From Mytilus trossulus (Eukaryota), in assembly GCF_036588685.1 (NCBI RefSeq), contig NC_086373.1:20460001-20524000 (forward strand): 64,000 bases of DNA, given 5' to 3'. This document shows, one piece after another, positions 23,386 to 56,000 of this stretch (position 1 is its first letter; every line of letters begins with the position of its first letter). Position numbers and translations under genes: made by a program. The notes beneath the pieces are model-generated. The model was not told the origin of the DNA, searched no databases, and saw only the letters and a program-made list of their open reading frames with translations.

Positions 23386-26300
23386 TCAATCTCTCAGTTC
23401 TGATGTAGGGATAATAGTTGGAGTATATTGTGGAGGTGATATTGCCGGTATACACGATGGTCGAATAGAATGTCCATGTACAGAACTATTAGTTGCATCT
23501 TGTTCACAAGTGTAATCATCTCTAGATCGGCTTATCGAATTCGTCAATGGTGGGAGTCTAGTATTAGGATACAGCGAACTGTATCTAGGAGGTCCTAAAG
23601 GTGGTCGATCAAGATTCACTGAAAAAGAAAGCATAAATATATAAATTGGTTCAGTGAACCTTGAGAATGTTTATCAACACCAGAACATTGGTAATAACAT
23701 GCAGGCAACCGCAACATCGATCTAGACCAAGAGGTTATAAAATCTCGGAGAAAAAGGACCAACATATATATTTCTCCATCGTTATTGATTTGGCAAGAAT
23801 GTCGTCTAGTCAACAAATGGAAGTTTTTAACGACATAGACTGGCTATACAGCCCTTGCACGGTCGGTTTAGTCAACAACAAATGGAAATTTTTAACGACC
23901 TTGACTGGCTATAAAGCCCTTGCACGGTCGGCTTGATTTAGTCAGTTAAGGCAGTTCAGTGGTATACCGCCATCTTGAATTGTAAATAATCGGTTTAGTT
24001 TTTTGCCCAAATCTTCAAATTTGGAGACAGAATTGCAATTTGTTATGATTTATTGGTTAATCATTTTATTTATTTTTATATGAAAACTTAGTTATTCATT
24101 GCATTCATGATCGAAAATGTTTGAAAAAATACCCAATATTTTGATTATAGAACTTATTTTTTAACCCAGTCATAAAGTGGAAATAACTCTTTTGGTGCAA
24201 AATTTATACTGGACATATTGTGATTTTTTTTACTTGTAGCAAGAAAAAAGTTCGGGACACCATTTATTCTTTTTTATTTCGTAAAATATATTATAAAACC
24301 TATGTTCTTAATTTTATTTCAAATTCTGTCTCAGAGTTGTTTTTTGGTGTGCACAAAAATATGTTTTTTTTATGAACAATCCAAGCAAATTTTGTCAATT
24401 TTGAACGACTCGTATCTTGAAAAATTTCGTGGTGACCCATACTTTTGATTATTTTTATAACTTTTTGGAAATAAGCATAGTAAAATTTTCATTTTGGCAG
24501 TGTATAAGAAAATTCTGCCATTTGTTTTTCTATATCCCCGAACTGCCTTAAAGCCTAATCTTTTAAATTAATCCGATTGTAAAATAGTTGTAAACGAGAG
24601 AAATCTTAGAAAACATCACTTAGTTCTTGTTTGAATAAATGTATGAATATTGTGGAAATTTGCATATACCATTTTGAAAATATATAAGGAATAAATAATG
24701 GGATAATTATTGATACGCCCATTTCTAGATTTAGAAACTAACTTCAAATACTCGTTAAGCGTTTTAGGTTCATATCGTTCGAAAAGCATTCCACCAATTT
24801 TGTACTGGTATATTTGACGTACATGCAACACAGAAGATCTTTAAAAGTAAATTATAGTATACAATGATTATAGACAAAAAAACTCCGTCGAAGATAGTTT
24901 CATTTCGACTTGAAGAAGATGTTCTGCAACATAATAGTTCGGTCCTTTTAGACTATTATTTTAGTGAAGGAGGTCGTGGGTTTAATCCCTGATCAAGTCG
25001 AATCTCTCTAGGAGACCACGTTAGGACGCACAAAGGCGACTAGAATTATAGAAGAAAATGATTCAAAATGGTAATGATGGGTCTACAATTTTCACCTAAT
25101 GGAGGTTAAATTAATCATTCAAGTCTGGCGTGTGACTAAAAAAATATTATAACATATTCATAGAAGCAGAACTGATGATATCGCGATCCACTGTTATCTA
25201 GATAAGAAATCGGTAGGTGTAATACTGACCTGTGATATTTGTTGTATTTCTTTGAGCGTCTTGAGATGGTTGTACAGAACACACCTTTGACTTACAGCAA
25301 ACTGAGACAATAAGACATGTTACAACCACTAACATTACACATATACTCCCGAGAACAGCACCTAAAATAGTTCCATCGGAACTGGAGAAAAAAATGTATA
25401 AAACGGTATTATGAAATTAGGTAGTTATAACGTTATTATTGTTGTTGGTTTTTTTTTTTAATTTTTGCTGTTTTTGCTGTTTTTGTTGTTGCTGTTGTCA
25501 TTGTTACAAATTTCAGGTTGAAAAACATGAAGCATGTGAGGAACTGTATCAATGAACTTTTTCCTGCGTAGAAATATTCCCAGAATATATTTTTTTTCTG
25601 ATAGACGAAATAGTGTACGTCCTTATATAAGTTATCCTAGTTTTATGTCTATAATCTAATTTTCGCTTTGAAGCTAACCGTGAAATAACTAAGAAAACAA
25701 TATAAAAATAAGGAGATGTGGTCAGGTTTCCATTTGGAAAACACTATCCATCACCAGAGTTCATATGACGTGAATGTAAACCCTGGCAGATACTTTAAAT
25801 AGAAACTTTGGTTCAATTTTCGCCGGCAATTGTAAATTAGATGGTCTTACAACTGGTATATACATGTTTAGATGTCGGACGCCATCTTAGCACGAACACT
25901 TTGTAAATTCTACAAAAAGAATCTACATCTGCCTTATTTGACTATGATTTCGATTGTTGCGGTCACGCTTGATGGCCCATTTGAATCGAAGATATGCGAC
26001 CTGTATTACCACTCTATCTATAGTCTCTACGGAACTTTTATCCTAACAAGGTGTCATTCATTTATTATAATGTTTTGTGAATATAATATCAAAATATTTC
26101 CGATGGACACCAAGTACAAGTGTATAAGTATATATGGTATACCTTGAAGAACTGTCATTTCCTTCGCCACTTACAAAATGACCTGAAAAAAAGTTGTATA
26201 TATATAGTTTTAATATTCTTTAAAAAAAATTGAAAATGTTGCTACTATATGAAGATTCCTTGTATTGTTTCTTGTTTACAATAGAAATTCTATAAATTTT

Positions 26301-27048
26301 CGTTTAATGTGTTGTTAAGGCTGCCTCATTGATTTATACCTCAAATGATTGTTTAATTTGTCGTTGGGTTGTTGTCTCATTGATGTATTCATCGGTTCTT
26401 TGTTTTTAAAATGTGTCGTTGGGTTGCTGTATTTTACGTATACATCAAATCTTAGTTTAAGTTGTCGTTGGATTGCTGTCTCTTTGTTACCTAAAATCAT
26501 TTTGTCACATACCCAAAATCTCTGTTTATTCATCAGAATTGCAGTAGAATATAGTAGAATAGAATATAAAAAAAGAAGATTTGGTATAATTGCCAATGAC
26601 TCGAATGAGACAATTTTCCTCAAGAGACCAAAAATGACACAGAAATTAACAACTGTATGTCGCCGTACGGTCTTCAACAATGAACAAAGCACATACCGCA
26701 TAGTCAGCTATGGAAGGCCCTGAAATTCATACGAGAAAACTAACGGCCTAATTTATGTACAAACATTTAACGAAAAACAAATATGTAGCACATAAAAAAC
26801 GACAACCACTGAATTACAGGCTCCTGACTTCGGACAGGCACATATACATACATACTATGGTGGGGTATATTTATTTCCCAAATAACAGGGCCCATAAATA
26901 AAGGGCATACAATCAAATTCAATTGATTGACATACTTATATTTAAGATCTTGGTAGAAATGGTGACATGAAGTATTTAAAAATCGCTTACCTACTAATTC
27001 ATAGCAAATTAAAACAAGCACGATTTTAGATCCCACTATTACATACAT
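23386..27048 (-). CDS. Paralog C: CYYR1/Shisa-like single-pass membrane protein, 4 exons, ~160 aa
   Basis: Exons 27048-26991 (MYVIVGSKIVLVLICYELV), 26182-26143 (GHFVSGEGNDSSS), 25381-25230 (SDGTILGAVLGSICVMLVVVTCLIVSVCCKSKVC...) and 23618-23386 (..PPRYSSLYPNTRL..PPQY..*). GT-AG introns, phases 1-2-1, 483 nt in frame. Confidence 0.8.
23950..24547. mobile_element. Non-autonomous DNA transposon with TTAA target duplication (Kolobok-like)
   Basis: TTAA|GGCAGTTC ... GAACTGCC|TTAA: terminal inverted repeats starting with purines, flanked by TTAA. Lies in the last intron of paralog C. Confidence 0.7.
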
Positions 27049-27401
27049 TGCAGATAAATGATCCAAAATATATTAATTTGAATAAATACATGATTGCATT
27101 ATAAGCTATTTACTGTGAATAGCGTGTCCATATAGACAAAAGAATCAGCCATTATACAAATGTTTACACTATTAAATTAAATTATATTGTTTAAGTACAC
27201 ATGTATAACCTTTCATTTTTATTAATAATTCTTTCAGTTTTTCAAATGAACAGTCACTGATTCGTTGTCAGTGGAAAACAATGATATTGACATGTAGTCC
27301 TCTTGTGCAGTATATACAATATATATTTGCAATGGACGTTAAGGAAACAACACTTAAGCAATGAAAATTATGTAGAATGTAATTGCTTACTTGATTAATT
27401 T

Positions 27402-27511
27402 GAGTATACGTTAACATTAATTTCAAATGCTATTTTGGAGTATACGTTAACATTCATTCCAAATTCTATTTTGGAGTATACGTTTACATTCATTCCAAAT
27501 GCTATTTTGAG
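27402..27511. repeat. 36-bp tandem repeat, 3 copies
   Basis: GAGTATACGTTAACATT(A/C)ATT(T/C)CAAAT(G/T)CTATTTTG x3. Confidence 0.8.
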
Positions 27512-29910
27512 CTGTTCAAAACAAATTCCATTTATCTGTCAGATTTTGTCACTGTCTTAGTCAAACACTACATCTGTCACAGACGGTTTTCAAACATACG
27601 ACTTGATGATGTAACTACAGTGTACTAATTATATCACTGGATTCGATGCTGAATTCTGTATTTGTTAAGTACTTATCATATCTGCCATGCTAGTTGAATC
27701 CATTTTGAACTAAATAATCCGAATATACTGCAACGTTTACGAAAACAGAGGGTCATTTGTACTTTTGGACTCTTTCCTTACATACAATATATAAATCAAT
27801 AACTATTATGTTAGAATAAACTCATTCATAATTTGTCACTGTGGTAAGATATTTTTTCGTTTCATTGCCGTTTAGTTTGTACTTAAAGGTTAAATATTTG
27901 TCTACCAAAAGTCCTATCTCCTGTCGATAACTAGATTTTGGCATTGCAAGACAAAATGCAATTTCTAGATTGCTTATGACGTCTTAACCTAAATCTGTTG
28001 GAGGTTTACTGGTTGGTGTTTTAGTCTGAAAAGTATTTATATAGCTTTCAGTATCTTAAAAACTGAACACTATCAGATCGATACGTTATGATTTGAATAG
28101 AAAAACCAAGGATATTGGGTATGCATGATCCATGACACAAAATCAAACATGCACAACTAAAACCACACAAAAAGCAAAGGAACAGAGACAATGTTGCTGT
28201 TTTTCATCTCAAAGTCACAGTACCCTCAACACGAAGAAAAAGCATCTCTCACTTCATTATTGTTGGTATCTTTCTTCTATATATTGTGTATTATGTATAT
28301 CAATCTGACGAGTCATGTTCATCGACATTTTTTTAAAGTTTGTTCTTATTCTATATTGTTACACCATTGTCCACGTGGTTAATGAAATTTTGAGCGCTCA
28401 CAAACCTGTTTAACCCTTGCACGTTCTTTAAGTGCATGTCTACCAGGAGCATGTAATCGTTTTTTGTTGTCTGATATATAACTTATTTTCGTTAATTGTA
28501 ATATTAATTTGCTCGTTAAGTTTTCTATAAGTCTCTTGTACCTTACTTCTAGTAGACGGTGTTTGTTTTACTCATTGCTAAACATTATGATTACACTTAA
28601 TTCCTCATTCATAATTGTCTTATTGCCATCACATCAAAATCTCTAAATGTTCATAAATCCTGAATGATCAACTGTTTTTGGTCGTTTTCACTATTGTAGA
28701 TATAGGAAGTTGTGGTACGGAGTGTCAATACCATTTGGACAACTCTCCATCAAAGTAACAATTTATAAAAGTAAACCATTATAGGTAAAGGTACGGCCTT
28801 CAAAACGGAGCCTTGGATCACACCGAACAGCAAGCTTTAAAGGGCTCCAAAAATTACAAGTGTTAAACCATTCAAACGAGAAAAACAGCGGTCTATATAA
28901 AAACGAGAAACGAGAAACACTTGTGAACCACAAAAACAGACGACAACCACTGAACATCAGATTGTTTGTTTTGTTCACTCATCGTTGTTAATATAATGGA
29001 ATTTGATGCGACGGTCATACAAGTGAGAAGTTTAGTTAGCTGTAAAACCAGGTTCAGTACACCAATTTGTCTACCTTTGAAAATGCCTGTACCAAGTCTG
29101 GAATATGACAGTTGTTATTCATTCGTTTAATTTGGTGTGTTTGAGATTTTGATTTTACCATTTGCTTATGGACTTTCTGTTTTGAATCAGTTTCCTCGGT
29201 TTTACTTGTAAAAATCAACAAATGATACGGATCCCTGAATTTACACCATGATATGTACCACATAGGGATTTGATTAATCTCTTCAGCACCTGCGATCACC
29301 CTAGTTTTTTATGGGGTCCGTATAACTTAAGTCTAGTTTTTCTGTGTAGTGTTTTGTAAACATTTCATTTAGTTGGTTTTTTTTTGCGATGGCATTGTCA
29401 CCTTCTCTCCAACTTATGAATTTGAAAGCTCTTCTTTTTCCTTCTTTAACAACAGTTTGATAGGCTGACCCTCCTCGACAAATTATTGCCCCCTGAAAAT
29501 TAGTTGACCCTGTATATTCCTATTTAGTGTTAACTGTCCCTTTGTATCTGCTGCGTTCATTGTATAAGCTTTTCGTGATGTTAACCCTGTTGTTCCAAAT
29601 CGGAGATTGTAAAAAAATTGACGATCAAATGATATAAATGATGTGAATTAAAATAACGATTTAATGAAATTTTACGTTTGTCCTACAAGAAAGTGATATG
29701 AAATAATGAAATAATCTAATACACGTTTTTAAATAAAGTACAGAATTTATGATTCTAAATGACCACCAAATTAAAAAAAAAATGGTTGTCACATTGAAGT
29801 GTTAAAATGAATAAAAATTCAATGATTCCTTCTGAAAATAATGTCACATAACGAAGCAATCGTATTACGTAGAATGTTTATGTTTTATTCAAATCACAAC
29901 CGGTGTTGTA

Positions 29911-31324
29911 TCAGACCTGATTTAAATGTCTGTGAATCCAAAGCCGGATTCTTGTTAGATATGATTTATCTACAGCATCACGTTGGTGTTGAGATGTATC
30001 TTCGATACTGTCGTCTGTAGCTTCGTGAAGATCTAGCCTGCAGCAGTTAGTTTCACAGAAGGTCTGGATAACGATTCCTAATAAGATAACCATAAGAAGA
30101 CATCCGAGACCTGTGCCAATAATAACACCAACTAACCTAAAAAAAAAATAATAAAGAATTTCCTTTATTGTATCATATAGGCTCAAAGGGATCCTTATTT
30201 TTCACGATATCACAGTAGCATGGGTTCGAATCCAGGCGAGGGAAGAACCAATAATTTGCGAAAGCTTTACAGATCTAACATTGTTGGGTTGATGTTTAGA
30301 CGAGTTGTATATAAATGTATAGACATTTTATGAAGTTATAAAGGCATACTCATTGAGAACTTAAGCATGTATCAGTGGTTTGATTGAAAGTAAATGATGG
30401 GAAAATTATTTTTCTAAACTGAAAATGACTCATAAGAATGAGGATCGCTTGATAATGTAGTGATATGAACCATCCCGTCCACAGGTGCTTGGGGGCATGT
30501 ACTGATGTAGGATTTTTTTTATCTTTACTGGTGTTTTCATGTGGATAGGAGCAGAAACACACAAAATAAGTAAATATAAGTTGACACATCAATAAATATG
30601 TTATATATAGAAAAAACACAAAAAAAGGGGAACCGAAAAAGGGTGGACATGCCCCCAAGGACCTGGTGTCCAACACCTCTTTAAACAAATTGTGAACGAA
30701 GGAAAATATTTTAATTACTTTAATGCTAGCACCTGATTGTTAATTTCATTTACTACGACACTGCGCAGTGGTACGGGAAAGAACTCTGATGAAGGTCATT
30801 CTTATTACCCAAAAATTAAAATGTTTCCTTACAAACGCGAAGAGACAACAGAATAATTTGTCGTCGGACCGTTTGTTTCTGGTTTGTACCTCTCATATAT
30901 CGTTGGTTTTGATTGTAGCCTGTAGGAAGAATAAACAGGGCCAGTTTTATTCCACTTAACTCAGTTCAGTTTTTAAAAACATACAGAAATGAATTATTCC
31001 TTATCCCCTGTACAGTTTTACCTTATTTGCTCGCCCATGTCAACAGTGAAAGGGAGATAAATCGTTGTGAGGGGCTTGTCAAATTAAGTATATCAAATTT
31101 CAGACTTTATCAGTAACACAGATTTTTTTGATTTTTTTATAAAACTTTATAACACAGCATAAGATCACACAAACTAATAATCATAAAAAATAATAATCTT
31201 TATTAACGTAAAGCATCATCTATTTTTTTCCCGTTGTGAACGTAAGCATTATCCAAATTTTATAAATGCTATTAATAATAAACATGATCACATATATGCG
31301 TTACCACACGCTCAGGAAAGTCAT
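29911..31324 (-). CDS. Paralog D: short ectodomain-less, PY-less member of the array, ~81 aa
   Basis: TM exon 30136-29911 follows a poly-T/AG acceptor (phase 2 in, like the other paralogs) and reads LVGVIIGTGLGCLLMVILLGIVIQTFCETNCC...LNQV*. A minus-strand AATAAA lies at ~29884-29889. The candidate first exon 31324-31305 (aaaATG MTFLSV, phase 2) is less certain. Confidence 0.62.
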
Positions 31325-31649
31325 TTTGAATTAGCTTTGACGCCTTCCTACAATGATTTTTTTTATATAAAAATACAAATAAAGCTAGACAAAGTGATGC
31401 CCGGCCGTCCCACACTCCTATCTGAAGCAACTGTATTTTACCAAAGCCGCTAATGTTGGACTTTCTTTGAGATATTATTCTGTCAGGGATACACAAATAA
31501 TGCCACCGCAGATGCAAAGTGTTATTTATAAAATACACCAAGTTGAGCAGCAGGAAAGGGGGGGGGGGGTTATCCGGAAACGCTATGCATTTCTAACGCA
31601 AACATATGACCGCAAAAGTTCAACTATCTCCCATAAGAGCAAAAATTGA

Positions 31650-32292
31650 TATAACGTGACGGTACCCAAATTGCACCTATTTTGACAGTTTTTTCACCTA
31701 CGTTTTTTTAAGATCAAGAAAAAAATGTCCACACAGTGTTTATTTTATAGCCCTATCCTTCTTTATTGTATAGGTACACCAAGTTGATTTTTTTTTTATC
31801 CATATTGAGTCATAAAATACAGGGTTTGAATCAACCTCCAAACTATCCATGGTTCTGTAATGAGGAGTACCCAAATTGCATCCATGCTTAAATTCACATC
31901 GTCAAAAGTCTAAAAACCGAGCTTTTGTTTAATTTCTTCAAATATTTTAAACAATTGGATATAAGTCCATGCTTACTCTTCATATTTTACAAAATAGATA
32001 CTTAACATATATTGTATTTGCTAATTTTAAAAAGATGACGTTTTGATGACGTCGCATGGTGACGTTTTCGTACATTTTGCTTTTTCTGTAAACAGTCCAT
32101 CTGTTGATAAGTAATGTGAACGTTTTGTGTATATCTAAATATGTTTACCTATGTTGAGAGACGTGCATTGTATCAAATCATAAAAATACAAAATTGTTTA
32201 GTCTAGGAAATCTTGTAAGATTTCCGTTACTATTTTTTTCTAAATAGGTGCAATTTGGGTACTCGGTGCAATTTGTGTACCCTTACGTTATA
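31650..32292. mobile_element. Non-autonomous DNA transposon (MITE; TA-flanked, Tc1/pogo-like)
   Basis: TIRs TATAACGTGACGGTACCCAAATTGCACC / GGTGCAATTTGTGTACCCTTACGTTATA, with additional internal copies of GTACCCAAATTGCA. Confidence 0.72.
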
Positions 32293-32905
32293 TTTATAAA
32301 TACCTTCAATATATGTACAAACAAAAGTGTGTACACCATATCTGGATTTCGACAATTAATGGCTTTTCAGTGATGTTAGGGATCGAAACGGAATTTGGGA
32401 GGCCATATATTAATTAACTTCAATTAAGGATAGACTCTTAAATTTTTAAGAGTGGAAATAGCATAGAGGCGGATCATATTAACCCAAAGGAAAAATAATA
32501 CAAGCCCAAACGAAAAAATATAGTCTAAATTGAAAACAACGTTATGAATGCGTTGCATAAAAACCTCAATTTTATACGTGTGTATGTAAAACAAATTTAC
32601 TGGTAGAGAGGTCTAAATACAGCACAAACAATATTTTCCGAAAGACACAAAAAGTGAAAAGAATATTTTAAACAAACGCAATTGACTAACAGGTCAAACA
32701 ATTGATGTTCTTAAACCCTGCTGACTGCTATTAACGATTGCCAAATGAATTGATCACAAGATCTTAATTATCACTTTAATACTTAACAGAAAACAGTAAA
32801 CTTGCGAAGAAGATAGTATACCGCAAACATGAGCTGAAAAAAATTGTACACCATATCCGGATTTCGACAATTAATGTCTCTTCAGTGATGTTAGGTATCG
32901 AAACT

Positions 32906-33184
32906 TAACCAATTCGAATTAGTTTTAATTCGCACCATAACGTCGTAACGACAATTCGAATTCGAATTGCAATGCGCGTCAAATTCGCTTTACTGTCCAA
33001 ACGACGCTAACTTTTAATTTGTATTATTCACAAAAGCGTATTTTTAATGCAAATTGGAAAATTCGAATTAGCCAATTCGAATCAATTCGAATTAAAGAAG
33101 AAGAGTGTGTGAACGCAATAAGCGAATTCGATTCGCATTCGATTCAAATTCAATTCGAATTAAATGTCCGTGTGAACAAGGCAT
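32906..33184. mobile_element. Truncated Harbinger-like MITE fragment rich in TTCGAA/GAATTC palindromes, inserted in the second copy of a local duplication
   Basis: Ends in GTGTGAACAAGGC (reverse complement GCCTTGTTCACAC). It interrupts sequence that is contiguous in the copy at ~32330-32515. Confidence 0.5.
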
Positions 33185-34357
33185 CAATTTAGGATAGGCT
33201 CTTGGATTTCAATGAGTCGAAAAAGGATAAACGGACCATATAAACACAAAGGAAATTATAATATAATCCCAATCGAATATATATATATTTAACAATGCGG
33301 TGTCTTCTCCTCGGAATGGAAATGATGCAGGAGCGTAATAACCTCTTTTTGCAATTGGAGTTACGGTTTTTAGGAAACTGTACTTTTTACCACAAAATCA
33401 TTACAATAACTTTATTTCCAAAAAATCACGTTTAGTCAATTCAAGTTACTAGTATACGGCATCACTAAATATCGGTTTTTAAAAGACACTTATCTAACCC
33501 TAAGACTTCATAAAATTAGTTCAACCATCGGTCAAGCCAATTTTCTAATCATCCTGAAACTTGAACGAATATGAAATTTTTAAGACGAAGGATATGCATG
33601 AATAACACATGCATTGAAAAAAAGGAAAAGCACAAAGTAAAACAAGGAAAGGATATGCATATCCTACTCCGCATGTGGCACCCTTCATGATACTCTTGAA
33701 AAATTTGGTGATGTTACAATAGAGGAAAAGGGGACGGAATTATGGTTAGAGTAAATCGGAACGTACCAGTGGTCATCTGAGAAAGTATAGATAATCTAAA
33801 ATGGCGACTAATTCACAACCAATTCTTTTTTCAAAATTTAGATTGTTTATCAGTTAAAATCCTTGGGTTTACAATAGCTTACTTGTAATTAAATATTAGG
33901 AAAGGAATAGTTTGTAATACTTTGATTGGAACTGATATATATTCTATATGGAGGCACTGCTAGAATGGGACTTCAAAGAAAAGAAAAGATCACAATTTGA
34001 AAGCTGAAATAATCCCATTTCTCGTAAAGGTTTGTTCAACGTGCTATCATTTTCAATTTCTATATATAAGTCTCGATAAGAGACGGACTAAAATGTATCT
34101 GGCGTATCCATTAGTTCAAGTTCGATTGAACAGAAATGAGATGCGTTTAACATAGTCACCTAACTTTGAAATATTTAGCAGGAGCTTTGGTTTCACATTT
34201 GAGGTTGTAGCTATCACCGGTGTTTTCAATTTATTACTTGGTTAACTTTCATAAAAAATTAATTTCGGTGCAGCGCAGTTTTGATTTATTCAACAAAAAC
34301 ATTTAAAAAAAATGATAATTTGTTCGAATATCTAGTGAAATTATTCAAATTAGACTT

Positions 34358-37300
34358 TTATCTATTATAGTTTCCAAAGTTTGTTGTTGTCAGGAAAGGA
34401 TTGGCTGATTCTGAGTTGTGTCTGTCAGGCATTGGAGCAGATGGTGTCTGGAAAACGTTTGTTCCCATTGGAAGTGTTTGATTCTGACTTTCGTAGTATG
34501 CTGGTGGTGGAGGAAATTGGTTTGCTGGTACATAAAATTGATGGTTCATTGGCTGCATTTCTAAAAATAAAAATAATGGTGAAATTTTATAGATATTGGT
34601 ATTGTTGAATTCTTATGTTGATCTTAAATAGAGGTGTTTTTTTTTGTGGTGTTTGGTATATAATTCTGTTACTATTTCATTTCAATACTTAGTATACTCA
34701 ACATCTTTTTTAATTCATATATATTCTTAGGCAACTTGAATCATTCTTACTAAAAGGTAATGCACTTTACTTTACATATATTTTATTCTTTTTATTAATT
34801 TTCTTATAATACATTACTGTTAATGTTGTTTGTTTCGTCTATGGATGATGATTCTAATATGACTTGCTTCTTTTGCTTTATGAACAATCACATGCTCTAA
34901 ATCCATTAAAGTTTGTTTCAGTGCATGCGTATATTGACTTCTACGAGAATAATGAATTTTTTTTCAAATTGGTATGCATTTAATATCTCCAATCACTTAA
35001 ACACTTCTAAACTCTAATATAATGCACAGGTTGTTACTAATTCATTTATCATGACTGTCATGTTGCAATTCGAAATTGACATATTTCACCTAGATACGAC
35101 AACCGTGCATGCCGGCTGTTCAAAACTCCTTCCTCTGAAAAATCACATTGCCAGTCGTTTGCTTGTTTGCAAACAAAAAGGGAAGGTTCATGGAAGAGTC
35201 TTCACAAACGCACTACACTTAATATGCACATCGGACATAGAAATAACCTTAATTTTCCTAATCAAAATCGAAATAGTTGATGCAAGCTATACTTTATTGT
35301 AGTTTTAACATGGGTAAGCATTACATTCGCATTATATGCGTGATTATTTTAGCCCTCACTATAGCTCGGGCAAAAATAATCACGCATATAATGCCTACCC
35401 ATGTTACAACTACAATAAAGTATTACAGCTTGCATTAAATATTTGTTAATTTGGACATTTGGTTATTATTATTTTTTCAGAGTGCACACTTAAAGATCAA
35501 AGAACTTAATTAGAACTATTTTCAAGATAAAAACTTTTGATAGCTTTTTTCGGAAGCTTTTCCCTGTATTTCTAGATGGGCTAGCACTTTTGTCTTCTCG
35601 AAATATATATTCGAAAATTCTGTAACCGATTAGTAATCACATGAAAATACAAACTCTAATGCGGGGTTCACACATTGCCGATTATTGCTCCCGTTTGAGG
35701 TCAGACAGCAATACGACACGAAAAGTTAAAAAGTCGGATTAGTATCCTTAATTATCTGGAATGTCCTATCTTTGTCTGAACACAGTCGTTTTAGTTCGTA
35801 ACAGATTCTTACGGGTCGGGAAGGGTCCGAATAGTTCGGCAAAGCACCCCGACAGTTAGGTGCGTCCCGTAACATTCGGGACAGCTCAGACGATTTTGTC
35901 TAGTCGGATTACAATCGTGGCTATGTCGTGACAGATTCTGCTGTATCGGATCGAATTCCGAACAATGTCTTGTGTATTCTGGACGGTGTCTTGTGGAACG
36001 GGAATGATCTTGAGTAATTTTTCATAGTTGTTTTTATGACGATTGAGTCCAGATTGCATCCAAATCTTGTCGATTGCGAACCGTTTTTTGCCGAAACCGT
36101 TCCGAAACAGTCCCGTTATTAATACGAAATTAATCAATGATACCCACGTCAGAGTCCCGACAATTACAGAATACAATACGACTGAGACCAGACAAAGCCG
36201 TTTGCAATGCGATAGAGCGGACCGTGATAGGATTACGTTCCGACAGTACCTGATCATCCCGAATATGCCGACAGTTTTCTAACGGATATCTTCCGTCAGC
36301 GTCGGTTCACTGTCTGGTCACTGTCTGATCTTTGTCGGATTACGTTCGGTAGAGTCGGGACGAAGTCGTGACATAATCGGTCGAATTTTACCTGGCGAAA
36401 AATACAAATTGGGTTAGAAGCGGATTCAGAACGGGATTATCGGGACTTATTCGCTTAGAAACGGTTGAATATCGTCGCTTCCTGAACACTATCTGATTGT
36501 TGTCGTGATCAAATTATTTTCTTTTACAAATTTTGATTTTAGTTTTAATTTCCTTCCACGATTCACAGGATCTTGATCAGACTTTTGATAAATTTTAATC
36601 GGGAATGGTCCTGTCGAGGACGGTAGTAAAAATCGTGAATGTGTGACCCCAGCTTAAGTGGAAATACTTTACCTATCTACTTAGTATCATAACGTAAAGA
36701 TTTTGGGGTTTACAGTTGTTTTTCTTGTGAGCTTGTAAGTTGTAACAAACGACCAAACTAACCCCACCGCGACGTTTACAATTGGCAACTGATAGTAGTA
36801 ATTTTGTTAATCATTCGTACATGTATACATTTTAAAAGTGTTTATCTTTTTTCCACAACGGTTGATTTGTTTATATGGATTTGATCTATTTTTTTTGGTA
36901 AGGATTGACCTTTAGTTTTGATGTTGGCTTTTATATCAGGTGTATTGAAGAGACAATGTTACAAAATCTAAATCATCTAATACAATAGTGGGTAGTTATA
37001 CTAGTATATTAGAAAGATTCATAAATTTTATATACAAAAAAAAAAAAAATCACACAAATACTGAACTCGGAGGAGAATCCAATCGGAAAGTCCATAATCA
37101 TATGGCAAAATCAAATGACGAAACACATCAAAAACGAATGGACAAGAACTGTCATATCCTTGACTTAGTACAGGCATTTTCAAATATACAAAGTTCACAA
37201 AAATAGGAGTTGTTACCTATACAAAAGTCAAAGTGTCGTCACTTCTGGCAATGTTGTTCTAAAATGTCCACATAATATAATCACATTCGTTTATCAATAT

Positions 37301-40300
37301 AATTTGAATTTTTGTTGAGATTCAGTAATCTCATTCTTAATGTTGTAGGCAGCATTGCATTGCTCTTAGTATTCATATTCCTTAAACTTACGAGGATATC
37401 CCGGATGTGCTGCTACCACTGCGATATTATTGCTTGGGACACTGGTTACAGATCGGTGTGATCGTTTGCTGAAACAAAAAGCACCACACATGGCGACTAT
37501 GAAAGTAATCGTTATTCCTATGACAAATAGACCACCAATCACAATACCAACAATCGCACCAATTGATCTGAAAAAAAATTGTTAAATCATTATCTTGTTG
37601 GCATTTGTAATTATTCCGATACCATATTGGATATTTTTAACTTCCGGGTAACTAACCAAAAACCGAGAAAGCACATCAACTACAAGAGGAAAACAAAGGA
37701 ACAACAGGAACACTGAAGTACAACAAAAACAAACGCCAACTTACATAGAAACGAACTATTTTGTGATTTTACTTTTTGATAACAGCTGCCATATTCCTGA
37801 CGTGATACAAAATGGTTAACTTGAACTTGATTTTATGCTAGCCAAACCTCCCGCATATATGGCAATGTTAAAAATATCACTTAACTGACAACGCTACATG
37901 ACAGAAATACTGCGCAAACACATGCAAGAACAGAGAAACATTTTGTCATCGTATATGACATTTAGTTGCTATCATAAGTGGGTCTTGAAACAACAATGTT
38001 TTCTTGACAAAGTAAATACTACAAGATTAAAAAGTCTAGTTACTGGATGGAAAGTCTTGACAAAGTAAATACTACAAGATTAAAGTCTAGTTACTGGATG
38101 GAAAGTCTTGACAAAGTAAATACTACAAGATTAAAGTCTAGTTACTGGATGGAAAGTCTTGACAAAGTAAATACTACAAGATTAAAGTCCAGTTACTGGA
38201 TGGAAAGTCTTGACAAAGTAAATACTACAAGATTAAAGTCTAGTTACTGGATGGAAAGTCTTGACAAAGTAAATACTACAAGATTAAAGTCTAGTTACTG
38301 GATGGAAAGTCTTGACAAAGTAAAAACTACAAGATTAAAGTCTAGTTACTGGATGGAAAGTCTTGCCAAAGTAAATACTACAAGATTAAAGTCTAGTTAC
38401 TGGATGGAAAGTCTTGACAAAGAAAATACTACAAGATTAAAGTATAGTTACTGGATGGAAAGTGCGTGACAAAGTAAATACTACAAGATTAAAGTCTAGT
38501 TACTGGATGGAAAGTGCGTGACAAAGTAAATACTACAAGATTAAAGTCTAGTTACTGGATGGAAAGTCTTGACAAAGTAAATACTACAAGATTAAAGTCT
38601 AGTTACTGGATGGAAAGTCTTGACAAAGTAAATACTACAAGATTAAAGTCTAGTTACTGGATGGAAAGTGCGTGACAAAGTAAATACTACAAGATTAAAG
38701 TCTAGTTACTGGATGGAAAGTGCGTGACAAAGTAAATACTACAAGATTAAAGTCTAGTTACTGGATGGAAAGTCTTGACAAAGTAAATACTACAAGATTA
38801 AAGTCTAGTTACTGGATGGAAAGTGCGTGACAAAGTAAATACTACAAGATTAAAGTCTAGTTACTGGATGGAAAGTCTTGACAAAGTAAATACTACAAGA
38901 TTAAAGTCTAGTTACTGGATGGAAAGTCTTGACAAAGTAAATACTACGAGATTAAAGTATAGTTACTGGATGGAAAGTCTTGACAAAGTAAATACTACAA
39001 GATTAAAGTCTAGTTACTGGATGGAAAGTCTTGACAAAGTAAATACTACAAGATTAAAGTCTAGTTACTGGATGGAAAGTGCGTGACAAAGTAAATACTA
39101 CAAGATTAAAGTCTAGTTACTGGATGTAAAGTGCGTGACAAAGTAAATACTACAAGATTAAAGTCTAGTTACTGGATGGAAAGTCTTGACAAAGTAAATA
39201 CTACAAGATTAAAATCTAGTTACTGGATGGAAAGTGCGTGACAAAGTAAATACTACAAGATTAAAGTCTAGTTACTGGATGTAAAGTGCGTGACAAAGTA
39301 AATACTACAAGATTAAAGTCTAGTTACTGGATGGAAAGTGCGTGACAAAGTAAATACTACAAGATTAAAGTCTAGTTACTGGATGGAAAGTCTTGACAAA
39401 GTAAATACTACAAGATTAAAGTCTAGTTACTGGATGGAAAGTGCGTGACAAAGTAAATACTACAAGATTAAAGTCTAGTTACTGGATGGAAAATGCGTGA
39501 CAAAGTAAATACTACAAGATTAAAGTCTAGTTACTGGATGGAAAGTGCGTGACAAAGTAAATACTACAAGATTTAAGTCTAGTTACTGGATGGAAAGTGC
39601 GTGACAAAGTAAATACTACAAGATTAAAGTCTAGTTACTGGATGGAAAGTCTTGACAAAGTAAATACTACAAGATTAAAGTCTAGTTACTGGATGGAAAG
39701 TCTTGACAAAGTAAATACTACAAGATTAAAGTCTAGTTACTGGATGGAAAGTCTTGACAAAGTAAATACTACAAGATTAAAGTCTAGTTACTGGATGGAA
39801 AGTCTTGACAAAGTAAATACTACAAGATTAAAGTCTAGTTACTGGATGGAAAGTCTTGACAAAGTAAATACTACAAGATTAAAGTCTAGTTACTGGATGG
39901 AAAGTCTTGACAAAGTAAATACTACAAGATTAAAGTCTAGTTACTGGATGGAAAGTCTTGACAAAGTAAATACTATAAGATTAAAGTCTAGTTACTGGAT
40001 GGAAAGTCTTGACAAAGTAAATACTACAAGATTAAAGTCTAGTTACTGGATGGAAAGTGTGTTGATGTAATATCAAATATTATACAATTGACGGCTAACA
40101 CTTCTTCTATACGGTGGCAGAATGAGGCCATGCAAGAAATAGTTTTTAACTTGTTCCCACAACATAATATTTTGTACCCACAAGATAATATATTGTGCCC
40201 ACAAAAAAGTGTTCTTGTTCCCACGAGATAAAATATTGTGAGTACAAGATATTATCTTATGAGAACAATATACTATCTTGTTGGAACAAAATATTATGTT

Positions 40301-41925
40301 ATGGGAACAAGTTAAAAAATATTTCTTGCATGGCCTCCGAACATCAATTTGTATCAAAAGAGAATGTGTGTCATTGTTTATGACATATGTAGGTTATAAT
40401 AAGTAAGTTTTAAATAAGTTTAAATTTCAAGTCAAAAGCTTTATTATTTTTATATATTCTATGGAATACCGGTACTTATATTTCTTCTGAACATTCATAT
40501 TGTATGCTTGTTGTTTCATTATTATTTCCTACCGATAATCTGTCTGGGAGCAGGATGGAAAGTACATTATCATTTTATCAAATATTTTCCGATTGATTGA
40601 TACCAATTCTTCTATCATCAGTCTTTGGTGATATCTTTTTGATTTGTTTTTGTCTCATCTTTTTCTTTCTTTTTTGTTTAGACTGGGAGCAATTTGGCGC
40701 TTGACATACAGTCATACACCTGTGTATGCCTGTTATTGCATTCTTTAATTTGTATAAAGCAATTTTCGTCCATAACAAGACCATAAATATACATTCAACT
40801 TACAAGCCATCGTTGGAATAATAATAGTAGCTACGGTAGTAACGACGATAATATCCTTCAACGTGAGAAACTGAAAATTGATAAAGATTACATTTTCATA
40901 AACGCAAGCAAATCAATTTTATGACAATTGAAACACGGTTTTGGTCAGTCTAGAATTCTACACAGAAACGAATTTTATCGCTATTTTGTGCATTTTTCCT
41001 TTGATCTTTTTTTGTGATAATTTTCATATCATGCTTCTCGCTTGATATGAAAAAAATATTGCTAGAAACTAAGGAGCCACGTGCGTTGCTAACGAAATTG
41101 ACATTGAAATTGACAACGTCGTCACAGGTAAAATAGCGATAAACAGATTATCATTGGTCATCTCAACTCGATTGCTTTTCTCACTTTCGCTGTACCAGCT
41201 CAAGCGAGAAAATCCATCTCGTTGAGATAATCAACGATAATCTATAAATATCGTAATAAAATTAACGGTACCAATTTTCTTGCACCAGATGCGCATTTCG
41301 ACAATACATGTCTCTTCAGTGATGCTCGTGGCCAATATATTTGAAATCCAAAGCTTATATAAAAAATATGTGCGAAAGAACACAATGTTGCATCCCTGTC
41401 TTAAATCAACACACCAGCCGAATAGCAATCATTTAGCTTTTCCCTTGCTTGGATAAACTTTTCTAATACATATATAATCATTGTAGTTAAGATGGGTGAA
41501 CGATTATTTTTTTATATACAGAATTTATTAGTTCGAATAGCACGCTTGGTATTCTTGCTATCAAAAACACAACTGTTGTTTTTCCATTTATCAGGTTAAA
41601 TTCAGGTATTTGATAAAAAAAAATGTTATTAAAAAGATATTAACAATTGTCTATTTTTCACGTATTTATTTGTTTTTCTGGTTATCCATTACTATGTCAC
41701 GGTACGTTGTTACAAAATATCAGTAATTTACTATTATAAAATTGATAGTATAAATAAAAGTAAACAAAATGTTGCCATTTATCGGTTAATTACAGAATTT
41801 TCGAGTTTTGAAAGCACTATGTTTACCAATTATTTCTAATGATGTACAGGTGTACATTAACTTTACTGACCTGAGTTTAAGATAAAGAGAATGACCATGA
41901 AACAAAGTTTTTCTTTAGTTTCCAT
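34358..41925 (-). CDS. Paralog E: CYYR1/Shisa-like single-pass membrane protein, 4 exons, ~166 aa
   Basis: Exons 41925-41871 (METKEKLCFMVILFILNS), 40870-40804 (VSHVEGYYRRYYRSYYYYSNDG), 37567-37392 (SIGAIVGIVIGGLFVIGITITFIVAMCGAFCFSKR...) and 34560-34358 (..FPPPPAYYES..TPSAP..NPF..*). GT-AG introns, phases 1-2-1, 501 nt in frame. Confidence 0.86.
35660..36654. mobile_element. Non-autonomous PIF/Harbinger-like DNA transposon (~1 kb)
   Basis: TIRs TGCGGGGTTCACACATT / AATGTGTGACCCCAGCT with TAA on both flanks (35657-35659 and 36655-36657). The interior is CpG-rich, unlike the flanks. Confidence 0.75.
38003..40059. repeat. Homogeneous 51/52-bp tandem satellite (~40 copies) in intron 2 of paralog E
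   Basis: Unit CTTGACAAAGTAAATACTACAAGATTAAAGTCTAGTTACTGGATGGAAAGT, with a 52-bp variant carrying GCGTGAC. No unique spacers. Confidence 0.97.
40121..40339. mobile_element. Palindromic MITE-like element with ~21-bp internal repeats
   Basis: GAGGCCATGCAAGAAATAGTTTTTAACTTGTTCCCA ... TGGGAACAAGTTAAAAAATATTTCTTGCATGGCCTC. Confidence 0.75.
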
Positions 41926-42859: not shown

Positions 42860-43020
42860 CTGGGGTTCGTGTTGCTTAATCTTTAGTTTTCTATGGTGTG
42901 TCATGTGTACTATTGTTTTTCTGTTTGTCTTTTTCCTTTTTATCCATGGGCATTAGCGTTGTAACTTTCTTTTCGATTTATGAGTTTGACTGTCTCTCTG
43001 GTATCTTTCGTCCCTCTTTT
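42860..43020. repeat. Dispersed repeat family 3 (representative copy)
   Basis: CTTTAGTTTTCTATG..GATTTATGAGTTTGACTGTC..TGGTATCTTTCGTCCCTCTT recurs at ~8540, ~29330 and ~47300, and inverted at ~44890 and ~61500. Confidence 0.75.
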
Positions 43021-46000: not shown

Positions 46001-46509
46001 GAGAAAACACAAACGACTGAACGTTAAAATGCAACACACACAGAAACAAACAATATTATAACAATGGCCATCTTCCTGACTTGGTACAGGACACTTTTAA
46101 AGGGGAAAAAAAGTGGTGGGTTGAACCTGGTTTTATGGCATGCCAAACCTCGCACTTTAATGGCAAAGTTAAATAAAACATTGAAATGACAACATAATAT
46201 TACAGGACTACAATACAAATAAATAGGAGAACGCATTAGATAAAGAAAAACATGATGAATAGATAACAAAAGACATCAGGTTTAACTGTCAAAACTGTCA
46301 ATGCCTTTCAGAACGTTGAATTTCTTTTATCAATAAATCAATCCATTATTTTATTGGAAGGGACTGGATTTTGGCTATAATAGTACGCTGTAAGGTTTAT
46401 AAAAGGTAAATTATATTCAGGTGATTTTCAATAAATGTATTTCAAGTCTTACAAAAAAACAAAAAAACAAAAAATCCACCAGCAGTGGTATCGACCCCGT
46501 GGTTGTAAA

Positions 46510-46740
46510 TAAACTCAACATAGACACCAGGATTAAATTTTGTATTTACATCAGACGCGCGTTTTGTCTACAAAGGACTCATCACTGACGCTCGAATAAA
46601 AAAAGTTAGAATACACAAATACAGTGCGAAGACGAAGAGCATTGAGGACCAAAAATTCCGAAAAGTTTTGCCAAATACATCCATGGTAATCTATTCCCGA
46701 GGTTGAAAAGCATTAGTAATTCAAAAATTCAAACTTTTAT
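46510..46740 (+). repeat. Dispersed repeat family 2 (representative copy)
   Basis: ATAAACTCA..CCAGGA..AGACGCGCGTTT..GACTCATCAGTGACGCTCGAAT recurs at ~1360-1523(-) and ~50414-50545, the latter in the TLR 3' region. Confidence 0.8.
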
Positions 46741-48200: not shown

Positions 48201-50303
48201 ATGCAGATAATATATCAAGTTTTATCACTCCTGGGATTTACCATCAGCTCAGTGGTATGCGCAAACAAGATGAAATTACCTTGTCAAGAAGAAGCACGCT
48301 GTAACTGCTGGAGAGTTAATAGAGAGAAGTTAAATGTGGATTGCTCGTATAGTAATATGTCGACAATTCCAGTACTGCAGTACGATGTAACTTTTCTCAA
48401 TCTTCAGTTCAATTCTATAGAAGTTCTTCCTAGCGGGATGCTAGGAAATCTTTCACAGTTGTCTACATTAGATATTTCGTATAACAAGCTATTACGGATT
48501 GAACCAGGTGCTTTTGACGGTCTCCGTCATTTAAGGAAATTAATTCTTCAAAACAATGCTTTGAAATACAATACTGTTTCGTTTCCATTAGGCATTTTTA
48601 AACCGTTGGTATCACTCGACTACATGAACATCAAATTCAATGACCCTTCAAATAGTGAAAACTTTCCAGGTAGTGTCCTTTCAGACCTTATAAAGCTTAC
48701 TGATCTCGAGCTTGACGTATTTGAATCACAAGATTATATGGTGTTTCCTGAAGTCTATATGTCCTTCAAAAGACTGCAGAGACTGGTGATTGGCAATTGT
48801 ACTATAAACACTATGAACAATACATTCTCTTATTTACCGTATCTTCAGTATATAGATATTTCTTCGTGCAATATCAGCAATTATCAAGAAGGGACATTGA
48901 ACAAGAGGAATCTGACTTATTTAAGTATGCCAGGCAAGGGATGGGAATATCTCAAATATGATCAAAATGTTGTTCGTGATTTAAACACAACAAAGTTGAC
49001 CATTTTAGTAATGAAACACAGTACGTTTTCATTAGAGTCTGCATTTCATTACAAATATTTGATTCATTCAGGTTTAAGAGAGTTGTACATACACAATAAC
49101 AACCTAAATCAAATAATAAATGAAGGTGAACCAGTAGAATTCTCTCTCCCTTCTACACTTGAGATTTTAGATCTTTCAAACAACAAATTAAGACAATTTT
49201 GTATCAATCTCCGAAACGTTACTGTTCTTAGTCTATGCAACAATTTGATTGGTCCATTCTTAGAGCAGGATCTGTGCATACAAAATGAAGCTAGTAACCT
49301 AAGAAGAATAGATTTATCTTTTAACAGAATTGAACATTTTAGTTTCTCTATATTTCAGCAACAAGCAAATTTAAAGTTTATCAATCTGAGCTACAACAAC
49401 ATAATACATATTTCATTTGACGTTTCTTACATAAATTATTCTTCAATCTTGGATTTGTCCAGCATTAACATAAGTTTTTTCGATCCGTCTACTATGAGCA
49501 ATTTCAGTTTTATGATGCACAGTTTCGGGTTAAAACTGAATTTATCAGACAATACGTTTGAATGCAATTGTGAAGGAATTTTGTTTTTGGTATGGATGTA
49601 TGATAATTCTAATCACCTGGTGAATAGTGAAAATTATGAATGTAAATTTGAAGATGGCTCCGTCATGAAATTCTTACATTTAAGAGATATAATTTATAAT
49701 TTGCAAATAAACTGCTTATCATACGATCTTCTTGCCGCCTCTCTTTCTATCATTATTCTATTAACTTTTGTTATTCAAGGAGCAAGACTCGTGTTCAAAT
49801 ACCGTTGGAGATTGCTTTATATGTATTACAGAAAAAGGAGAACACTCGGTAATGGGCAATCGGTAGAAAAATTCACGTTCAATGCGTTTATTGCATATTC
49901 AGAAAATGATAGGGATTTTGTTCTGAATGACTGTATTCAAAACCTTGAGAGTGATGGGGAGTTGAAACTGTGCATTCATGATCGTGATTTTCTACCAGGC
50001 GAGGAAATAACTTCAAATATTACAAACGCGATTCGCGAGAGTAAAAATACCATTTGTATTATTAGTAAATCATTTTTCCAGTCCTACTATTGTATGTTCC
50101 AGTACAACATGGCATTAATGGAAGGAATTTATGAAAGAGAAGAAGATAACGTTCTGATTTTAGTTTTCTACGAACAAATTATGCCTCGAGATTTACCATT
50201 AGTCATACAAGAGCAAATACGACAAAGGTCTTATATTTTGTATCGCAATGATGGAAGAGGAAACGTAGATTTCTGGAAAAGATTAAGAGAAGCTATACTG
50301 TGA
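48201..50303 (+). CDS. TLR: Toll-like receptor, single-cysteine-cluster type, 700 aa, single coding exon
   Basis: Signal peptide; LRR-NT (CQEEARCNC..VDCS); multiple LxxLxLxxNxL repeats; LRR-CT (NTFECNCEG..YECKF); TM (LLAASLSIIILLTFVI); TIR domain (FNAFIAYS, LCIHDRDFLPG BB-loop, C-terminal FW). A splice acceptor TTTTTGCAG ending at 48189 implies a 5'-UTR intron. Confidence 0.96.
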   Translation: MQIIYQVLSLLGFTISSVVCANKMKLPCQEEARCNCWRVNREKLNVDCSYSNMSTIPVLQYDVTFLNLQFNSIEVLPSGMLGNLSQLSTLDISYNKLLRIEPGAFDGLRHLRKLILQNNALKYNTVSFPLGIFKPLVSLDYMNIKFNDPSNSENFPGSVLSDLIKLTDLELDVFESQDYMVFPEVYMSFKRLQRLVIGNCTINTMNNTFSYLPYLQYIDISSCNISNYQEGTLNKRNLTYLSMPGKGWEYLKYDQNVVRDLNTTKLTILVMKHSTFSLESAFHYKYLIHSGLRELYIHNNNLNQIINEGEPVEFSLPSTLEILDLSNNKLRQFCINLRNVTVLSLCNNLIGPFLEQDLCIQNEASNLRRIDLSFNRIEHFSFSIFQQQANLKFINLSYNNIIHISFDVSYINYSSILDLSSINISFFDPSTMSNFSFMMHSFGLKLNLSDNTFECNCEGILFLVWMYDNSNHLVNSENYECKFEDGSVMKFLHLRDIIYNLQINCLSYDLLAASLSIIILLTFVIQGARLVFKYRWRLLYMYYRKRRTLGNGQSVEKFTFNAFIAYSENDRDFVLNDCIQNLESDGELKLCIHDRDFLPGEEITSNITNAIRESKNTICIISKSFFQSYYCMFQYNMALMEGIYEREEDNVLILVFYEQIMPRDLPLVIQEQIRQRSYILYRNDGRGNVDFWKRLREAIL

Positions 50304-53044: not shown

Positions 53045-56000
53045 TCATGACCTCATTTCACTGTATGGCGGACATGGTGATGCTGGTGACGATATTCCTT
53101 GAAATGTTGTATTTGATGGCGGCGATGATACACTAATATCTTCATACGCTGGTGGAGGATTTACATCACTACTTGTATACTGTGGTGGCTTTGTTACTAA
53201 TGGTTGATACGGAGGTGCTGTCGGTGGTATATATGACCAGTTATTGTGAAGAGGTGCTAAAAACAAAAAAACATCACATTTATACTGGCATGCTTGAATT
53301 GGAGATCCGAAATATACAAAGGAAACATTTACTAAACATTATATTAACAAGGTATCTGTTATAGGAACTTCTATTTCACTTTTCGAATACAAATGAGACA
53401 AATGTTTGTATTTCGCTCTTTTGAGATTATTTTGAATCTGCACAACATTAATTATTATATAGAATTCTTAAAAAATACAGTCACAATAAAACATGTCGTA
53501 GGCATGAAAGACTTTTGATAAGTTTGTTAACTTCTTCATTCACATCGCTTAGAAAAAAAAACTGGCTCCAATTCGCAATAACTCGCTGAATAACATACAG
53601 TCTCTGTCTTACCATTATCGTTCTTATGTAGTTCTAGAACACCTATTCAGATATATATTTGGAGATAGGCAAACATGAAAGATTGCATCATTATTTAAAT
53701 TAGAATTAAATACCATGTATTGGTATGAAAAGGTATCTATTTGATTCCGTTTGTTTGAAGATTAAAACGTAGAATCAATCATAATAATATTACCGTTGTA
53801 TAAGATTTTTCATTTTCATTTTGAGCATTCCCTTGGCTTCAACTAGTATCTAAATTTCAAAACGACAGAATGTTTCCAGTTTATTTATTTGCACTCGAGT
53901 TAAACATAAAACAAACTTACTGCTGTAAGGGGCCCTTGAAGTAACTGTGGCTATTGGTGTTTGACGTATCGTGTGGCCACGTATACCGTGTGTTTTACAA
54001 CAATTACAAGCGTGTACAACCACAATGACAATAGCTATGACGATACACAGAGCAATCAATCCACCTATAATACTACCAGCTACCATACTGGCAGACCTGA
54101 AATAAAGACAAATACAAATCTGAGTTATATTGTACACGGCTAAAGCCAATTACTACTGACTGAGCTGAAATAAAGACAAATACAAGTCTGAGTTATATCG
54201 GATATGGTTGATGCCAATGAGACACTGAAACAAACGAGCATATAAAAAGAAGAAATTCGAAAAATGACTTGACTTTTCTGAATTCTTTTTTGCCATGACT
54301 GTGATAATTACAAAAAACACATAATTAAAAAATTGCCTGCATCTATTCTTTCCAAAATTGGCTAATTTCCCTGGTAAGTGTAATTGTAGAACGTGTACAA
54401 GAAAATATAGCAAAGTCATATTCAAATTTAGAATCTTTATCTCTGTTAGAATAAGTTTTATCAAACGAAATTGGAGCAATTTATGATATTATTCCCTGTT
54501 TACTCTAAATACATAACTAGCGAATTTGTTTATTGCATACAATCATCAACGTTAGTTCAAACGGTTTTCACAAAATTTATAGAACATAAGCAGGATTTAT
54601 ACTTTCCCAATTGCATAAATACAGTGGATTATATTTTGCACAAAAGTTGTCTACACATCATGTTATTATATGTTATTCTATTTTATTCCAAGATGTTTGA
54701 TTTCTAGCAATAAGAAGCTTTGTCGGGTAAAGAAGATCAAAATGTTAAAGAACTCGTGAATTGAATTCGTTTGGTACGATTCAAGAAGTAAACGGGAGAA
54801 CACGTCGAAAGCGACCCAAATGGTTGATTGCTTTTTTGTGACCTTCAGAATGAAACGTTTGTATACATGAATGCTCAGAAAAGCCACCTGCATGAACAAA
54901 ATTGAAGAAAAGGGGAAGGGAAGTTCCTTAAAATCATCATTTACTTATTATGTCATTCTGGGACATTCTTTAATTTGCACATGTTGAAATAAGAAGTAAT
55001 TTGAAACGCGCTTTATGAAATTTCTGCTGAATATTTTTTAATGCAAATTTACACTTAATTATATGTCCCAAACAGCAAGTAAATGAATTCGATTCCTATT
55101 TTAAAATATTCCTGCACAAATAATGAAATAATTAAGGGTATGCAGTATTTATATATTCTTTTTTTAAACATTTTAAATGTGACGTTATGCTTCGGACACA
55201 TTACTAAGTCTTGACATTGTTTTTTTATTTATACAAAATCTAAGTTTAAAATTAAAAATCTGTGTACATTATATTTATACACATAAATTTTGATATAAAA
55301 AAAACTTGTGTGCGATGGTTGAAAATCTGCCAGCAGATTCGGAGTTATTTTTACATTTTCTGGCATAAATATTTTCCATCGACAAAAACAAATTTTAATT
55401 ATTTCTTTCTGTCAATAATACGCTTAAAATTTATTTTATATTGACAGCCTTATTAACCACATAATACGTTTCTTCCAAGCGTATATATAATCTTCTGAAA
55501 ATGAAGTGGTTGTCTGCCAACACATTTGGATGACAACTGGAAGTTCAGTATCTAGTTACATGTCAGAACTATGCATGTTATGTAATAACTATTTTAAATC
55601 AAATTTTATAATAACAAAGTTATGTGCCAAAGTAATTACAATTTAATGAATTGCATAACTTTATAATTTTATAATACAACAATGTATATTCACTTTAAAT
55701 GGTTATGTAATTTTATTATGTAGAAAAATTATGTGGGGCACCATCCATGACACAAAATCAGCACATGCACAGCAAAGGCACACACACAAATAAACAAAAG
55801 GAACAGGCGCCTTCGATGTATTCATTCTTCAGAATAGATTAAGAGCACGCGAAAGCCGGACTTTTCTATAACAGTTCTGATTTGGACAATACATTAAGTA
55901 TCGGGGGAAATATCTTCAACCGAGTATAATTTTAACTGTTATATTAAACGGTTTTAATCCTGACTTAATTCAGAAGACTTAAACGTAATTGGGAAGTTTT

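Follow-up and report, generated by a model that had tools for sequence, protein, structure and literature searches.

Organization of the array

We analysed a 64,000-nucleotide stretch of Mytilus trossulus DNA (the window; G000:C1:20,460,001-20,524,000, within a 1.30-Gb genome) and identified in it a tandem array of genes for short single-pass membrane proteins, which we suggest to be candidate adaptors in endosomal sorting. Six-frame translation revealed six minus-strand transmembrane (TM) exons with a GxxIG-type start in the window, and the corresponding genes A, B, C, D, E and F represent six of the ten members of the array. The total of ten includes four near-identical A-like copies beyond the left edge of the window, which lie directly next to it and about 10 kb apart (G000:C1:20,420,600-20,453,200; L016-L019); each of their tails carries two terminal PPxY motifs and no P[S/T]AP. 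Within the window, PPxY-type (PY) motifs are found in the tails of five of the six genes, all except D.

A, B, C, E and F were modelled as four-exon genes, with a signal exon, a short ectodomain exon, a TM exon and a tail exon, and the intron phases 1, 2 and 1 are common to all five. The spliced models of C and E are identical to the M. trossulus RefSeq proteins P0072 and P0003, the A model reads the same as RefSeq protein P0042, and F is matched by orthologs in four other Mytilus species (including P0044). Contigs of runs X1-X4, presumed to be RNA, were mapped over positions 16801-36800 of the window and used for exon joints, not for expression level. They join exons 2, 3 and 4 of B and exons 3 and 4 of C, and end at the last acceptor of E (34560). 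The layout of the five proteins, as assigned by eye, is that of type I membrane proteins: the first exon is hydrophobic and there is a single TM segment.

All exons given here are on the minus strand. Gene A consists of a signal peptide exon (15050-15101) and an ectodomain exon with two Cys and seven Tyr (12591-12660), both matching P0042, followed by an exon for the TM helix and juxtamembrane part (7972-8129) and a Pro/Gln/Gly tail (7203-7501). The tail contains PPPY (7247-7236) and a terminal ASAPPY (7223-7206), which lines up with the PPxY at the end of the sister copies' tails and might be a weak TSG101 site. In gene B, the signal peptide exon (21475-21520, from the gene model) precedes an ectodomain exon with two Cys and no Tyr (19312-19369; contig joint 18062/19312), a TM exon (17903-18063; contig joint 16984/17901) and a short tail (16910-16986) whose PPRY (16981-16970) is retained in P0039 and P0041. 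Gene C has a signal peptide exon (26991-27048), a modelled Ser-rich exon without Cys or Tyr (26143-26182), a TM exon (25230-25381; X1 and X4 contigs join 25230 to 23618) and a tail (23386-23618) with PPRY (23592-23581) and PPQY (23436-23425), both present in all aligned orthologs. The tail also contains the string LYPNTRL (23554-23574).

Gene E begins with a signal peptide exon (41871-41925) and a modelled second exon that encodes eight Tyr among 23 residues and no Cys (40804-40870); its TM exon lies at 37392-37567, and its last exon (34358-34560) encodes PPAY (34507-34496), PSAP (34444-34433) and NPF (34402-34394), which in M. coruscus read PPAY, PTAP and NPF. Gene F comprises a signal peptide exon (58308-58368, supported by the ortholog P0044), a modelled exon with nine Tyr among 28 residues (56789-56870), a TM exon (53921-54096) and a last exon (53045-53256) with PTAP (53224-53213), PPQY (53188-53177) and PPAY (53155-53144). 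An earlier sequence-only reading had placed the motif-bearing tails within 23386-53256. This span does hold those of C, E and F, but those of A and B lie outside it and the sixth member, D, was omitted; all the strings that it named are present in frame in terminal exons.

D departs from this plan. Its TM exon (29911-30136) is terminal and followed by no PY tail, with contigs continuing to 29587, and a short, probable first coding exon without signal peptide (31022-31038) is weakly indicated by the same start in P0040 and a 9-base loose end in X1. D thus apparently has neither a signal peptide nor a PY tail, although contigs of three runs cover it. In the models of two other species it lies downstream of a copy of the first two exons of C, which is absent here. 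D may be a copy that is truncated or acts as a dominant negative. Eight public models (P0039, P0040, P0041, P0052, P0054, P0058, P0061 and P0074) join array neighbours to one another or, in the case of F, to a B-box gene downstream; these fusions are likely annotation artefacts.

Family identity

The STMC6/Shisa-like superfamily includes CYYR1, WBP1, WBP1L/OPAL1, VOPP1, TMEM92 and SHISA5. The array proteins resemble CYYR1 (PF10873) and other STMC6 proteins in their signal peptide, short Tyr-rich ectodomain, TM segment with juxtamembrane Cys and Pro-rich tail with PPxY. E scores 34.8 bits against the Pfam CYYR1 family, above the gathering cut-off of 31, and its nearest Atlas cluster is CYYR1-like (0.94, Mollusca). 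CYYR1-like is also the database name of the M. edulis ortholog of E and of an A-like neighbour. We compared the TM exons with a profile built from 34 paralogs, all outside the array, and with the maxima of block shuffles: A (48 bits; 47.7 before rounding), F (45; 45.4 before rounding), E (42) and B (23) score above shuffle maxima of 5-20 bits.

Genome searches indicate a family of at least 47 genes. Four paralogs elsewhere (C1:18.787, C1:18.794, C7:47.372 and C1:94.767 Mb) retain the full C*C*CC*CC pattern of six Cys, the hallmark of STMC6 proteins (PMC5578492, partial text), and many of the genome's family genes have two Cys flanking a Tyr run. The six-Cys ectodomain is absent from the array members, whose exon 2 encodes zero to two Cys: the domain is cut to two Cys in A and B and lost in C and E, and F has a single Cys near its signal end. 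The profile scores, together with the six-Cys paralogs elsewhere, lead us to regard the array, as far as sequence can tell, as a derived, Cys-reduced offshoot of the CYYR1/STMC6 family rather than a canonical member; it differs further in its tandem expansion and in the P[S/T]AP of some tails.

Several results weigh against this assignment. No Pfam CYYR1 match at E<=0.1 was found for A (P0042), C (P0072) or the F ortholog (P0044), the best Atlas matches of C are other families at below 0.9, and C and D reach only 14 and 16 bits on the outside-array profile against shuffle maxima of 10-13. The family link of C and D is thus mainly by position and, for C, by exon structure. The Pfam scan of B and D covered their TM exons. 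Searching the genome with PF10873 gave two weak exon matches, neither above the cut-off, and an Atlas structure search with a low-confidence model of E returned no match at a TM score of 0.5 or higher. The family-wide protein search yielded seven matches, all already in the set, and no orthologs outside Mytilus.

Some paralogs outside the array show unusual gene structures. In L088/L102 (G000:C3:6.957-6.977 Mb), repeats that stem from the 3' half of the TM exon and have long open frames take up about 19 kb of the third intron, which is followed by a tail exon that bears PSAP. In L107, the tail exon is duplicated (G000:C3:7,085,015 and 7,088,056) behind one TM exon.

PPxY and P[S/T]AP motifs in the tails

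Tails were recovered for 43 of the 47 family genes (those at C1:5.659, C1:18.84, C1:31.802 and C3:6.981 Mb are missing) and sorted by eye into 26 lineages, and the presence of each motif was compared with 1500 whole-tail and 1500 local shuffles. PPxY occurs in 38 of the 43 tails, corresponding to 23.7 of the 26 lineages where 6.6-8.2 are expected. P[S/T]AP is rarer, being found in eight tails, and is likewise enriched (six lineages, a number reached by none of 1500 shuffles, versus 0.75-0.82 expected). Outside the array it is present in four of 20 lineages versus 0.75 expected (p=0.005). An earlier run on 36 tails agrees with these counts; with the lineages then missing scored as negative, it gives p 0.002-0.012 (Poisson) for P[S/T]AP. 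When P, P, A and [S/T] are arranged in the 11 alternative orders, ten of these are not enriched.

Both motifs are conserved between species. All five ortholog records of F carry P[S/T]AP, as PTAP in three and as PSAP in M. californianus and M. coruscus. Among the five records of E, three carry it, with PTAP in M. coruscus. S and T are therefore exchanged in both genes while P, A and P are invariant. Between E and its M. coruscus ortholog, nine of the ten positions of PPxY, PSAP and NPF are identical and the tenth is an S to T change, compared with 44 of 82 in the remaining tail. When P[S/T]AP is placed on a tree built from 44 TM segments, it requires five changes; with 19 of 41 branches open, the tree is compatible with one origin as well as with several.

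Other observations argue for caution about P[S/T]AP. The anagram [S/T]APP, which overlaps it, is as enriched as P[S/T]AP itself (6.2 of 26 lineages), so selection may have acted on [S/T]AP ahead of a PY motif and not on a TSG101 ligand. In two E records (P0001 and P0004) the tails are frame-shifted and lack PSAP and NPF, the motif positions of E lie in short conserved blocks so that their conservation is not fully independent, the lineages were grouped by eye, and the resolution of the TM-segment tree is poor, with stars on 12 of its 41 branches.

PPxY might accordingly be the sole functional motif, with P[S/T]AP arising as a by-product of the [S/T]APP context or of Pro-rich repeat turnover and not binding TSG101. 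The equal enrichment of [S/T]APP fits this explanation, and in F and in the gene at C9:73.67 Mb P[S/T]AP runs into a PY-like string. We nevertheless consider it improbable, since P[S/T]AP is located at least 11 residues from any PPxY start in four of the six lineages, the S/T swaps in E and F leave P, A and P fixed, and TSG101 ligands obtained by phage display likewise read PSAPP (PMC11670305, partial text), a reading also present in the F orthologs.

Other short motifs

YxxPhi motifs are not above background (14.3 lineages versus 12.3-13.0 expected), and once the Tyr of PY-type motifs is excluded they fall to 5.3 versus 10-11 expected. The extended form PxYxxPhi, in contrast, is found in 11 of the 26 lineages where 3.3 are expected, and in YSSL, YEDI and YSEM the Tyr also belongs to a PY or xPxY motif. 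These strings are thus better described as extensions of PY-type motifs, comparable to the extended PY motif known from Comm (PMC5578492). NPF is present in one of 26 lineages (0.33 expected, p 0.29) and is kept in three of five E ortholog records, within a conserved C-terminal block. ALG-2-type YP..YP repeats (PMC5037681, partial text) were considered and rejected, at 5.5 of 26 lineages versus 3.1-3.9 expected (not significant).

The enrichment of PxYxxPhi would also suit adaptors of the Shisa/Commissureless type, which would catch client receptors in the endoplasmic reticulum (ER) or Golgi and have them degraded before they reach the surface, with the endosome being secondary. Shisa proteins and Comm work in this way, Comm having an extended PY motif (PMC5578492), and in a different mussel, genes with a Shisa domain are over-represented in the gills (PMC5549309). 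This is an unlikely role for the array, whose members lack the six-Cys lumenal domain; moreover, the nearest Pfam match, CYYR1, is late-endosomal (PMC11399591, partial text), and P[S/T]AP points to ESCRT-I, a complex for endosomal sorting.

The LYPNTRL string of gene C has been read as an ALIX-binding motif. Its Tyr codon (23571-23569) is replaced by Phe in other species: nine of the ten records that cover this tail read LFPNTRL or LFPNSRL (two from M. edulis, four from M. galloprovincialis, one from M. coruscus and two others), and the tenth is identical to the window gene. The rest of the tail is 81-92% identical across the four orthologs scored, the Tyr being among the few positions that differ. 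Phe is most probably the ancestral residue, since M. coruscus, a more distant relative, has it. The Tyr codon is also seen in contigs of X1, which indicates a real allele and not a sequencing error. Tyr is the critical residue of YPXnL, tested as a change of Tyr to Ala, not Phe (PMC3341166, partial text). The leading Leu of LYPNTRL doubles as the hydrophobic residue of PPRYSSL. Strict LYPx1-3L arises with P=0.013 in shuffles of the five window tails and is found in one of 26 lineages (p 0.06-0.10), and the loose form YPx1-3[LI] occurs in four versus 3.4 expected. The ALIX-type motif of C is best regarded as a lineage-restricted Phe/Tyr substitution with no conserved role.

These results bear on the sequence-only reading, in which the tails jointly encode all three late domains, each paralog having its own sorting code, and bud into vesicles that carry Tyr-rich decoys. 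E and F do combine P[S/T]AP with PPxY as LITAF and ARRDC1 do, exosome secretion of SIMPLE depends on its PTAP (PMC3667717, partial text), the ectodomains of E (8/23) and F (9/28) are Tyr-rich, and strict LYPx1-3L is reached in only 1.3% of window-tail shuffles, with the Tyr codon present in X1. Set against this are the Phe at the critical position in nine of ten C records, the single lineage of 26 with LYPxL, the reduction of SIMPLE exosome secretion by PPxY reported in the same source, and the absence of any ligand, pathogen link or sign of loading into vesicles among our findings. With no Tyr encoded by the ectodomain exons of B and C, a decoy rich in Tyr is excluded as a role shared across the array. 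We therefore find the full proposal very improbable.

Its parts fared differently. PPxY and P[S/T]AP pass the comparison with background and orthologs, the P[S/T]AP of E and F being conserved across species and the motif enriched family-wide. LYPx1-3L is not kept in the orthologs, and YxxPhi is not above background. The claim of all three late domains is thus refuted by the criterion that the sequence-only reading had itself set, and two of the three stand. The distinct code per paralog was overstated, as YxxPhi counts the PY Tyr twice, the four A-like tails are near-identical and D carries no tail motif. The label 'viral-type' holds as an analogy with late domains only, the genes being intron-containing host genes. 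A viral origin of the array is rejected on account of the four-exon genes with shared intron phases.

Proposed function

We propose that the PPxY tails recruit NEDD4-family ligases and that the array proteins, with any membrane partner, are sorted to late endosomes and lysosomes, and we consider this probable. Human CYYR1 binds WWP1, WWP2 and ITCH through PPxY, is located in late endosomes and drives lysosomal degradation, and multiple PPxY motifs are common to the STMC6 family (PMC11399591). The link to NEDD4-family ligases and endosomal sorting made by the sequence-only reading is borne out to this extent by the conservation of PPxY and by the human precedent. By analogy with human CYYR1, the tails of A, B, C, E and F would bind the WW domains of NEDD4-family ubiquitin ligases, K63 ubiquitination would follow, and the array proteins and any partner membrane protein would then go to late endosomes and lysosomes.

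E and F may in addition use P[S/T]AP to bind the UEV domain of TSG101, which would link them directly to ESCRT-I, as is the case for LITAF/SIMPLE. The genome's TSG101 retains Y68, N69, I70, M95, P139, V141, F142 and S143 among the contact residues described in PMC11670305; less favourably for such binding, T96 is replaced by Gln, and Y63 lies outside the residue comparison. A second TSG101-like UEV exon is found about 67 kb from the first (L110; G000:C10:33.09 Mb).

A bolder form of the proposal is that repeated gain or retention of a TSG101-binding P[S/T]AP has made E, F and four further lineages LITAF/ARRDC1-like, so that they bud by themselves into vesicles displaying a short, variable Tyr-rich peptide. 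In SIMPLE, secretion in exosomes requires PTAP and is lowered by PPxY (PMC3667717), a precedent that leaves vesicle release a possibility for E and F. We consider the bolder form unlikely. A term search in the main text of one study on mollusc vesicles (PMC7760292) gave no mention of the family.

Relation to known systems

LITAF/SIMPLE and ARRDC1 are alike to E and F in having P[S/T]AP and PPxY in one Pro-rich cytosolic region. The likeness is one of functional analogy only, as the array proteins are type I membrane proteins and Pfam scans found no LITAF or arrestin domain in them. Commissureless, PRRG4 and yeast Rcr1 are likewise short single-pass adaptors with PY and extended PY motifs; the array differs from them in having no Gla domain. 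Of the viral late domains (PPxY, P[T/S]AP and YPXnL), two of the three classes are found in the array, which by contrast consists of intron-containing host genes, has no conserved YPXnL and encodes no protein with all three.

PPxY-bearing CYYR1-like proteins are already known, and the array genes are partly annotated as such. Apparently new here are the enrichment of P[S/T]AP and the loss of the Cys domain, a modest variant of an ordinary family. A literature search, based on partly broad queries and their top matches, found no report of P[S/T]AP in STMC6 proteins, of Cys-domain loss or of CYYR1-like arrays in mussels; Pei and Grishin 2012, which defined the family, may note P[S/T]AP or Cys loss. 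If our proposal is correct, the NEDD4-ligase adaptors of mussels form a large set that is so far unstudied, and some of them have a direct ESCRT-I contact unreported in the vertebrate family. The genes, in which P[S/T]AP and the Cys domain are each present or absent, would then offer a natural series for studying the choice between degradation and vesicle release. A complete viral-type set of late domains would have been more striking, but it fails the ortholog comparison.

Neighbouring features

A single-exon gene for a Toll-like receptor with leucine-rich repeats and a TIR domain (48201-50303) separates E from F and is encoded on the plus strand, opposite to the array. Intron 2 of E holds a tandem repeat with a unit of about 51 bases in about 40 copies, counted by eye (38008-40070). 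Upstream of F, a tandem duplication of about 1.03 kb with 99.9% identity (59013-61084) represents either a recent duplication or an assembly artefact. At the left end of the window, 3201-5903 on the minus strand contains a reverse transcriptase remnant, which we take to be LINE-like and whose frame is broken by stops.

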